Assembly (NCBI GenBank): GCA_964347045.1
Contig: CAYFXC010000005.1
Coordinates: 98,282-162,281, forward strand
Reading direction: 5' to 3'
Source: an uncultured archaeon
GTDB taxonomy: Archaea; Asgardarchaeota; Hermodarchaeia; Hermodarchaeales; Hermodarchaeaceae
DNA: 64,000 bases
Of this stretch, positions 1-787 are shown piece by piece; the first letter of the stretch is position 1; every line of letters begins with the position of its first letter. Below the pieces are notes generated by a model. It was given only the letters and a program-made list of their open reading frames with translations, was not told where the DNA came from and ran no database searches. Both the position numbers and the translations under genes were made by a program.

Positions 1-155
1 CAGTCCGTTGGCTATTACGCAAAACTAACTCTGACCTGAATCAAAGGCACAAAACCTTTTTAATAATCAAAACTGATTTTTTTTAAGGCAGAGACGGTGT
101 GAAAGCAGGGGGAAGACCACTCTGTATAACGCTTCTCTGCGTAAGGTGAACGCCT

Positions 156-479
156 GTGATTGTACTTGAATATCAAGATGGAACATTTGTTGAATCGAAA
201 CAGGGATCCAGCGGCATCCGCTGTGAAGTAGATAAAACCGGCAAAAAAATCCGAATGATCATGCCTCAAGGCACTAACCTCATTGAACGACGAACCGCTT
301 TACGATTGGTTGACACCGTTGCGCGGAGTGGATATCTCCTTTCAACCGGCGAACGAGTCGGACAGGGTTTTGAGCTTGTCATCGATGAGAAAGGCACAGC
401 AATTCCAGATCGACTTAAACAGAGTCCACGAGTCAGTTATAGCTCAGTGACTGTCGGCAGCGTCGTCGACAAGAAGTAG
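156..479 (+). CDS. Probable single-domain gelsolin/cofilin-like (ProGel-type) actin-binding protein
   Basis: SD AAGGTGA at 143-149, GTG start. Strand-long helix-strand pattern (KKIRMIMPQGTNLIERRTALRLVDTVARSG...FELVIDE) parallels the gelsolin repeat of 46093..46698. C-terminal IPDRLKQS tail. Similarity to Asgard ProGel is from memory. Confidence 0.55.
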   Translation: MIVLEYQDGTFVESKQGSSGIRCEVDKTGKKIRMIMPQGTNLIERRTALRLVDTVARSGYLLSTGERVGQGFELVIDEKGTAIPDRLKQSPRVSYSSVTVGSVVDKK

Positions 480-555
480 TTATCACTCTGTGAAATGGGA
501 AATCGTCAACCAAACACAAGAACACAAAACAGCTTAAACAATTGAGGTGACCTGT

Positions 556-735
556 GTGAGCGAAGAAGAAAGTAAAGGAGAATCTTTGAGCGAGGAACTG
601 AAACGTGAAATCAAGAAAGGTGCAAAACTCGAACATGTCCCGGAAGTGAAACAACAAGTAGGCGATTTGTCAGCAGAGAAAGCCCTCCTCGAGAAGCTCA
701 GAGCTGAAGGAAAACTCGACGAGGAAGAGGATTAG
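556..735 (+). CDS. Small WH2/actobindin-like protein (~59 aa), putative G-actin binder
   Basis: SD GAGGTGA at 544-550 points to GTG 556 (ORF track opens at 547). ELKREIKKGAKLEHV fits the WH2 pattern of an amphipathic helix followed by G..LKxV. Second helix and acidic tail DEEED follow. Confidence 0.6.
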   Translation: MSEEESKGESLSEELKREIKKGAKLEHVPEVKQQVGDLSAEKALLEKLRAEGKLDEEED

Positions 736-787
736 CATCTCGTCTTGAGATTATACTTCTCTCCTCTTGTTTTAAATTAGGGCTAGT

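Follow-up and report, generated by a model that had tools for sequence, protein, structure and literature searches.

A two-gene locus in an uncultured Asgard archaeon pairs a predicted gelsolin-fold protein with a WH2-like microprotein and is a plausible actin-regulation module

Locus layout and gene conservation

A 64,000-nucleotide (nt) stretch of DNA from an uncultured archaeon (Asgardarchaeota; Hermodarchaeia; Hermodarchaeales; Hermodarchaeaceae; GenBank assembly GCA_964347045.1, contig CAYFXC010000005.1, positions 98,282 to 162,281 of the forward strand), hereafter the window, was analysed for two small adjacent genes near its start, termed gene 1 and gene 2. Gene 1 encodes a basic protein with a predicted gelsolin-type fold and gene 2 an acidic helix-linker-helix microprotein with a WH2-like module; judged from sequence comparisons and structure models, this two-gene unit is a plausible actin-regulation module. 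The window begins in intergenic sequence, and both genes follow downstream in the same orientation. The locus contains the following elements:

48-67, plus strand: putative promoter, a BRE/TATA-like element (BRE, transcription factor B recognition element) with the sequence CACAAAACCTTTTTAATAAT, which precedes the gene 1 start by about 90 nt
86-142, plus strand: conserved structured 5' leader, a long hairpin, imperfectly paired, that bears GGGG(A/G)A at its apex
141-147, plus strand: Shine-Dalgarno site of gene 1 (AAGGTGA), 8 nt before the GTG at 156, read from the sequence
156-479, plus strand: gene 1, GTG start, 107 amino acids (aa), single-domain gelsolin-fold protein, basic, isoelectric point (pI) 9.4
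480-555, plus strand: intergenic spacer, 76 nt, longest T-run 2, without a terminator-like T-tract
544-550, plus strand: Shine-Dalgarno site of gene 2 (GAGGTGA), 5 nt before the GTG at 556, read from the sequence
556-735, plus strand: gene 2, GTG start, 59 aa, helix-linker-helix microprotein, acidic, pI 4.7
756-773, plus strand: pyrimidine/T-rich tract ending in TTTT, after the gene 2 stop (733-735), candidate archaeal oligo-T terminator

The reading frame of gene 2 is already open from position 547, and a start at 556 is backed by annotated homologues that open with MSEEE. The AGGTGA core of the gene 1 Shine-Dalgarno site was unchanged across 15 orthologues, and GAGGTGA preceded gene 2 in most orthologues of genus g1, one of the two genera of the family (g1 and g2). 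Both genes were detected in all 18 other genomes of the family (identity 51-93% for gene 1 and 52-86% for gene 2) and were co-oriented on one contig wherever both could be placed; a fragmented assembly (G014) carried intact copies on separate contigs. The NCBI-annotated homologues of the pair bear consecutive locus tags (ACFFD8_05385 and ACFFD8_05390). Pairwise differences peaked at third codon positions in gene 1 (740/339/2662 for the three positions) and in gene 2 (231/214/790); both are genuine genes under purifying selection. Homologues of the two genes were found only in metagenome-assembled genomes labelled Hermodarchaeia, Thorarchaeota, Hodarchaeota or Promethearchaeota. A convergent gene of 299 aa that ends at 788 sets the downstream limit of the pair.

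Transcription unit and leader

Transcription-unit features were compared across 17 orthologous loci. The element CACAAAACCTTTTTAATAAT was nearly invariant among genus-g1 orthologues, genus g2 carried the BRE/TATA-like variant CACAAAAGGTTTTTTA at the corresponding place, and the assignment of CACAAAACCTTTTTAATAAT as a putative promoter was made by the archaeal BRE/TATA consensus. No second BRE/TATA-like element was seen between gene 1 and gene 2 in the orthologue comparison. Spacers measured 68-122 nt in the 17 orthologues with T-runs never longer than 3, and T-tracts of up to T8 lay within about 50 nt of the gene 2 stop in many orthologues (only T4 here). This comparative anatomy of the orthologous loci indicates that the operon-like pair is probably a single transcription unit. 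An earlier sequence-only reading of the window had described two co-oriented small genes, both with a Shine-Dalgarno site, 76 nt apart with no T-tract between them and with a T-rich stretch after the second; that description was borne out, the last element being the tract at 756-773.

The leader hairpin had a minimum free energy of -30.1 kcal/mol (z -4.3), and 0 of 200 shuffled sequences were as stable. Its architecture recurred in 15/15 orthologues, with GGGG(A/G)A at the apex; single-sequence folds were used for this comparison because the two genera align poorly, and RNAalifold applied to the two-genus leader alignment returned a trivial 7-pair consensus without compensatory changes. No Rfam family matched within positions 1-900, leader included. 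The hairpin could serve as a translational or autoregulatory operator. The motif CACTCTGT occurs twice on the plus strand, at 118-125 in the 3' arm of the hairpin and within 484-498, where the second copy sits in the spacer segment CACTCTGTGAAATGG (484-498) directly past the gene 1 stop; CACTCTGTGAAATGG is kept in most genus-g1 orthologues.

Fold of the gene 1 protein

An alignment of 21 gene 1 family sequences (A1) showed a conserved core (LIERRTAxRQAxxIARSGF..GERVGRG) and a conserved C-terminal tail (P[DE]RLxxSPRxxY), the middle residues of which vary (LKQS, LTVS, LKHS, LLRS). The AlphaFold2 model contained strands at residues 2-7, 10-14, 22-26 and 31-35, a long helix at 42-58, a further strand at 73-77 and a disordered tail. 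The W-x-G/DWG motif that precedes the long helix is absent from gene 1, which has MPQG in its place; the segment IRMIMPQG aligns with VWLWHG of the family member B35_Gel2 (introduced below), which keeps the motif, and W-x-G is therefore present in the family and lost in gene 1.

Structural neighbours of the model were sought with Foldseek and, independently, with VIA-align against 48,161 representative PDB chains. The first Foldseek match was Thor ProGel (7c2f; E 0.018, probability 1.0), and gelsolin or ADF domains made up nearly all of the first 50 matches. By VIA-align, ProGel 7c2f was the sole match at Z>=8 (Z 9.7, root-mean-square deviation (rmsd) 2.4 Å, 72 of 88 residues), and ranks 2-35 were occupied by gelsolin, villin, fragmin, adseverin, cofilin or twinfilin together with one Sec23 gelsolin-like domain (Z 5.9); gelsolin G1, G2 and G4, CapG, fragmin and cofilin scored Z 5-8 (rmsd 2.0-2.6 Å, about 71 residues), and further Sec23/24 domains scored Z of about 4. 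Among ESM-Atlas neighbours of gene 1, the nearest clusters with a Pfam family carried Gelsolin. Because of the Foldseek, VIA-align and ESM-Atlas results, the predicted gelsolin/ADF-H three-layer fold, with a mixed beta-sheet packed against a long helix, is well supported. Conservation within the family is highest along this helix, the element through which gelsolin G1, ProGel and cofilin contact actin (PMC7444086).

Gene 1 family

A full HMMER profile search yielded 166 cluster representatives of the gene 1 family, most of which are stand-alone proteins of about 100 aa; the domain also occurs terminally in some larger proteins and on long coiled-coil proteins. P0122 (459 aa) consists of a canonical two-domain gelsolin (2DGel), a long linker rich in PEP repeats and a third, C-terminal gene-1-type domain that was missed by Pfam, and is effectively a hidden three-domain gelsolin. 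The metagenomic proteins P0143 (493 aa) and P0156 (530 aa) join a Ras-family GTPase and a long charged coiled coil to a C-terminal gene-1-type domain, an arrangement by which GTPase signalling may be linked directly to actin in Asgard archaea. Because the 166 representatives gave no PF00626 match on the gene-1-type domain, Asgard gelsolin inventories have probably been undercounted.

The A1 profile also matched a 240-aa protein of Ca. Lokiarchaeum ossiferum (E 1.2e-5; hhalign probability 87%, E 3.9e-6). This protein was identified by its monoisotopic mass (26.57 kDa) and a roughly consistent gene order as GNAMCCOK_04647, which is B35_Gel2 (UYP48324.1), listed as a single gelsolin-homology-domain protein in a 2025 preprint (bioRxiv 10.1101/2025.11.30.690169) through whose B35_Gel proteins the divergent family was already partly recognised. 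B35_Gel2 was enriched in the anti-Lokiactin co-immunoprecipitation (Co-IP) of that work (log2 2.58, adjusted p 0.0028; bioRxiv 10.1101/2025.11.30.690169, Supplementary Tables 2-3). By the profile link, gene 1 belongs in stripped-down form to a divergent gelsolin-homology family, and this link and the Co-IP together place in the family at least one member that associates with Asgard actin.

Two closed genomes (2.8 Mb) from a different Asgard family have a 2DGel gene 1.1 kb downstream of the gene 1 homologue:

L032, 2525-2821 and 3950-4579: gene 1 homologue and 2DGel neighbourhood; L033 likewise

In L032 an alpha/beta-hydrolase-like gene stands between the two on the opposite strand.

Sequence and predicted structure of gene 2

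Twenty-three gene 2 family members were aligned (A2), and sixteen positions proved invariant (E14, L15, I19, L25, D37, L38, S39, E41, A43, L44, L45, L48, A50, E51, G52 and K53). Residues 13-28 form the WH2-like module EELKREIKKGAKLEHV, the spacing of which in genus g1 (L-x3-I-x2-G-x2-L-x2-V) is that of the WH2 pattern, and the C-terminal helix DLSAEKALLEKLRAEGK is highly conserved. The tetrad at the end of the module is variable (LEHV, LDHA, LAHA, LESA, LQSA, with LKKA in two members). The AlphaFold2 model has a helix at 2-21, a coil at 22-38, a second helix at 39-50 and an acidic tail. Beta-thymosins have an N-terminal helix followed by LKKT, then a linker of about 10 residues before the C-terminal helix, a layout that the predicted helix-coil-helix of gene 2 matches. 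In the ESM Atlas the first named cluster for gene 2 was Thymosin (0.88), with a WH2 cluster lower (0.79); these neighbours are leads only. Longer or fused forms of gene 2 were not found with the A2 profile.

Relatives of gene 2 in Loki-type genomes

In a phylum-wide search, A2 gave weak but recurrent matches of its N-terminal module to open reading frames (ORFs) of 50-55 aa in Loki-type families. These ORFs make up a family of their own (A3; MPQLDDELKxxIKKGVxL...), present in 125/135, 13/14 and 4/4 genomes of three families, and share with gene 2 an N-terminal [DE]ELKxxIKxGxxL module carried by proteins of about 50-60 aa. Alignment of A2 with A3 by hhalign covered a 28-column module (probability 93%, E 2.5e-7), the A3 profile retrieved gene 2 of the host genome (E 0.0014), and the genome searches were reciprocal. 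One L. ossiferum member (WP_371806818.1, 55 aa) aligned with A2 over both halves, including the C-terminal L-x-K-L-K-A-E-G-K (hhalign probability 91%, E 1.2e-6); it was not located in the Co-IP table, where it was looked up through neighbouring locus tags. By these profile comparisons, the WH2-like module is one that extends from Loki-type genomes to this non-Loki family. No description of the Loki-type 50-55-aa family was found in print. In Loki-type genomes the microprotein gene lies between a GNAT-like and a Pelota-like gene (read from their translations), with no gelsolin-fold gene adjacent.

Three findings connect the Loki-type module with actin. The A3 profile was compared with the PDB, where its best match was an N-WASP tandem-WH2 construct (E 1.4e-4, the sum of three weak repeats); N-WASP 2vcp (0.063) and MIM WH2 (0.4) were also listed. 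The module was further found within larger Loki-type proteins. Proteins of about 250-260 aa combine an N-terminal profilin-like domain, the WH2-like module and a small C-terminal domain, with Pfam Profilin (PF00235) scores of 19.2 and 16.6 bits, sub-threshold as is usual for Asgard profilins. A 488-aa L. ossiferum protein contains about ten WH2-like units and charged helices. The coding regions are:

L107, 901-1653, minus strand: profilin-like/WH2-like fusion
L108, 617-1390, plus strand: profilin-like/WH2-like fusion
L102, 864-2327, minus strand: 488-aa repeat protein, L. ossiferum genome, about 4.726-4.728 Mb

The repeat protein was identified by its monoisotopic mass (56.41 kDa) and interpolation of gene order as GNAMCCOK_04085, which was enriched in the Lokiactin Co-IP (log2 4.53, adjusted p 0.0021, 44 peptides) as strongly as actin itself (4.44; bioRxiv 10.1101/2025.11.30.690169). 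The main text of that preprint is silent on GNAMCCOK_04085.

Comparison with known systems

Thorarchaeota ProGel (PDB 7C2F; Akil et al. 2020, PMC7444086) is, like gene 1, a single gelsolin/cofilin-type Asgard domain of about 90-110 residues. Gene 1 differs from it in sequence (15% identity, no PF00626 match, MPQG in place of DWG/W-x-G), in an extra segment past the long helix (GYLLSTGERVGQG) and in the conserved P[DE]RLxxSPRxxY tail; it is likened to ProGel by predicted fold, and its actin binding is putative. B35_Gel2 shares with gene 1 the RR-x-A-x-RQA-x-SI-x-x-G core helix and, by profile, belongs to the same divergent family. Unlike gene 1, it is 240 aa long, keeps WLWHG, carries a disordered linker and a C-terminal domain and has no WH2-like neighbour gene, and the Lokiactin Co-IP result belongs to B35_Gel2 and not to gene 1.

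WH2 (PF02205; N-WASP, WAVE, MIM) resembles the genus-g1 form of gene 2 in the pattern of an amphipathic helix followed by G-x-x-L-x-x-V at canonical spacing, and the hydrophobic residues L15, I19 and L25 are invariant in the family; gene 2 has an acidic or neutral pair where LKKV has a basic one, and no Pfam score was obtained. Gene 2 is free-standing; WH2 elsewhere is embedded in larger regulators or lies between gelsolin domains, as with the WH2-like LRRV/LKHV/LVDV linker of Asgard 2DGels (PMC7444086, PMC9433394). The beta-thymosins (PF01290) are likewise small free-standing peptides, and the model of gene 2 follows their layout, in which an LKKT-like segment and about 10 linker residues separate the N-terminal from the C-terminal helix; the C-terminal helix of gene 2 is unrelated to theirs in sequence, its tail is acidic and no profile match was found. 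A short helical peptide is also the means by which Arcadin-2 reportedly acts, in the 2016 study of Izore and colleagues. Arcadin-2 of Pyrobaculum is an archaeal regulator of an actin homologue (PMC5173319); unlike the present unit, it belongs to another lineage and to the arcade cluster beside crenactin.

Proposed role and alternative readings

With moderate confidence, we propose that gene 1 and gene 2 form a co-transcribed Asgard unit whose probable target is the actin of the cell itself, for which it would supply two small ligands. The actin, the two 2DGels and the profilin-like gene of the host genome count in favour of such a role. If gene 1 worked as ProGel, gelsolin G1 and cofilin do, it would contact actin through its long and most conserved helix (42-58), which would probably sit in the subdomain 1/3 cleft or against the side of the filament, and such binding could lead to side binding, bundling or weak capping; the disordered but conserved tail may become ordered on a partner. 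Gene 2 would act as a free-standing WH2/beta-thymosin-like peptide, in which an amphipathic N-terminal helix (L15, I19) is followed by an extended stretch, L25-x-x-[VA], and a linker of about 10 residues leads to the second conserved helix. It would lie along the actin monomer and bring about sequestration or delivery, the C-terminal helix favouring sequestration. If both proteins bound canonically, they would compete for the monomer or act on distinct actin states (monomer versus filament), because canonical WH2 helices and gelsolin G1 use one cleft. Filament capping combined with monomer sequestration, the activity suggested for the unit by the sequence-only reading, may follow from such binding.

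Several results weigh against this proposal. The sequence-only reading had likened gene 1 to a gelsolin repeat and gene 2 to WH2, and had named structural and neighbourhood searches as checks; neither of the outcomes that it gave as refuting, a fold other than gelsolin/cofilin or a pairing not kept in relatives, was observed. The first likeness held for the fold, with ProGel as the best structural match, and failed at the level of sequence: gene 1 matched no Pfam family at E<=10, PF00626 included, sequence and profile searches of the PDB gave no significant match and no gelsolin, and the W-x-G motif is replaced. The gene 1 model is itself of moderate confidence (predicted local distance difference test score, pLDDT, 75), and Sec23/24, which also have a gelsolin-like fold, do not bind actin. 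The same reading had called the LKQS tail of gene 1 WH2-like; that likeness would rest on the conserved P[DE]RLxxSPRxxY tail, whose middle residues vary and which is disordered in the model. The second likeness found no profile support, since neither PF02205 (WH2) nor PF01290 (Thymosin) matched gene 2 at E<=10. Both models likewise missed all of its relatives at E<=10, PF02205 also each of the 23 family members, gene 2 was not among the best matches of a genome-wide scan with the WH2 model, and the A2 profile retrieved no WH2 chain from the PDB. Within the module, the basic pair equivalent to that of LKKV is missing from the tetrad in most members, G22 is not invariant, and genus g2 has a one-residue insertion before the tetrad.

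The linkage of the two genes, offered earlier as support for the WH2 assignment, proved to be that of a unit conserved in 18/18 genomes of the family and was not found outside it: no gene-2-like ORF stood beside the gene 1 homologues examined in other families, and strong matches in the phylum-wide A2 search were confined to the home family (18/18). The Pfam WH2 and Thymosin models did not match the Loki-type microproteins at E<=10, and direct hhalign comparison of A2 with GNAMCCOK_04085 was not significant, so that gene 2 is linked to that protein transitively. The Co-IP records association and not direct binding, in an Asgard class other than that of the host.

One alternative is that the target of the gene 2 protein is not actin but the basic gene 1 protein, for which it would serve as chaperone, inhibitor or adaptor, its WH2 likeness being convergent or irrelevant. 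Such a partnership would suit the opposite charges of the two proteins, the retention of their operon-like adjacency throughout the family, the lack of a WH2 or Thymosin profile match and the finding that the C-terminal helix of gene 2, not the WH2-like module, is its best conserved part. The module nevertheless occurs in Loki-type genomes that have no gelsolin-fold gene beside it, is fused to profilin-like domains and repeated in a protein that co-precipitates with actin, and gene 1 homologues of other families stand without gene 2 alongside. We regard this alternative as unlikely.

Equally improbable, in our judgement, is that the unit is unrelated to actin, the fold of gene 1 having been reused as in Sec23/24 and gene 2 coding for a small, charged helical protein of a generic kind. 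ProGel as the best structural match, far above Sec23/24, speaks against it, as do the fusion of a gene-1-type domain to genuine 2DGel proteins, the enrichment with Lokiactin of one gene 1 family member and one relative of the module, and the 2DGel gene found 1.1 kb from a gene 1 homologue in two closed genomes. It draws on the lack of a significant sequence match of either protein to any actin-binding family, on the distinction between likeness of fold and function (Sec23/24 domains appear in the fold list at Z 4-6) and on the fusion of the gene 1 family to Ras-like GTPases and coiled coils as well. That one or both ORFs are chance open frames, as their shortness, GTG starts and lack of family annotation might suggest, was rejected with near certainty on the dominance of third codon positions in the divergence of both genes, the orthologues in 18 family genomes (51-57% identity retained between genera), the conserved Shine-Dalgarno sites and the membership of gene 1 in a wide family. 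A toxin-antitoxin pair was also rejected, with no support from either protein or from the relatives of either.

Significance

Asgard archaea are the closest known relatives of eukaryotes. The Asgard actin regulators described so far are profilins and gelsolins, with WH2-like motifs only as four-residue 2DGel linkers (PMC7444086, PMC9433394); our literature search found no free-standing WH2 or thymosin-like Asgard protein, and gelsolin linkers only of the forms LRRV, LKHV, LVDV and LKDV. A broader and tentative possibility is that free-standing monomer binders of the WH2/beta-thymosin type occur in at least two Asgard lineages (Loki-type and this Hermod/Thor-labelled family) and that one was recruited here into an operon with a stripped-down gelsolin-homology domain. 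If so, free-standing WH2/thymosin-like peptides would constitute a third class of Asgard actin regulator, regulation of actin by a helix-in-cleft peptide, so far credited to eukaryotes, would predate eukaryogenesis, and a minimal two-protein system for sequestration and capping or severing could be reconstituted from 166 residues. The locus offers a compact test case, with two small soluble proteins (107 + 59 residues) encoded together.

Actin machinery of the host genome

The host genome (2.58 Mb, 89% complete) encodes an actin that scores 447 bits to PF00022 and a profilin-like gene with a sub-threshold match. A PF00626 scan of the genome returned two 2DGels and nothing else, one of them in the window and the second on contig 2:

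46093-46698, plus strand: 2DGel, 201 aa, two PF00626 repeats

Between its two domains the 2DGel of the window has LKEV, where characterised Asgard 2DGels have the WH2-like LRRV/LKHV linker. Beyond the main actin, two tandem actin-family paralogues (112-115 bits to PF00022) lie on contig 8 of assembly G000 (63633-65775, minus strand) and may be Arp-like or divergent actins.

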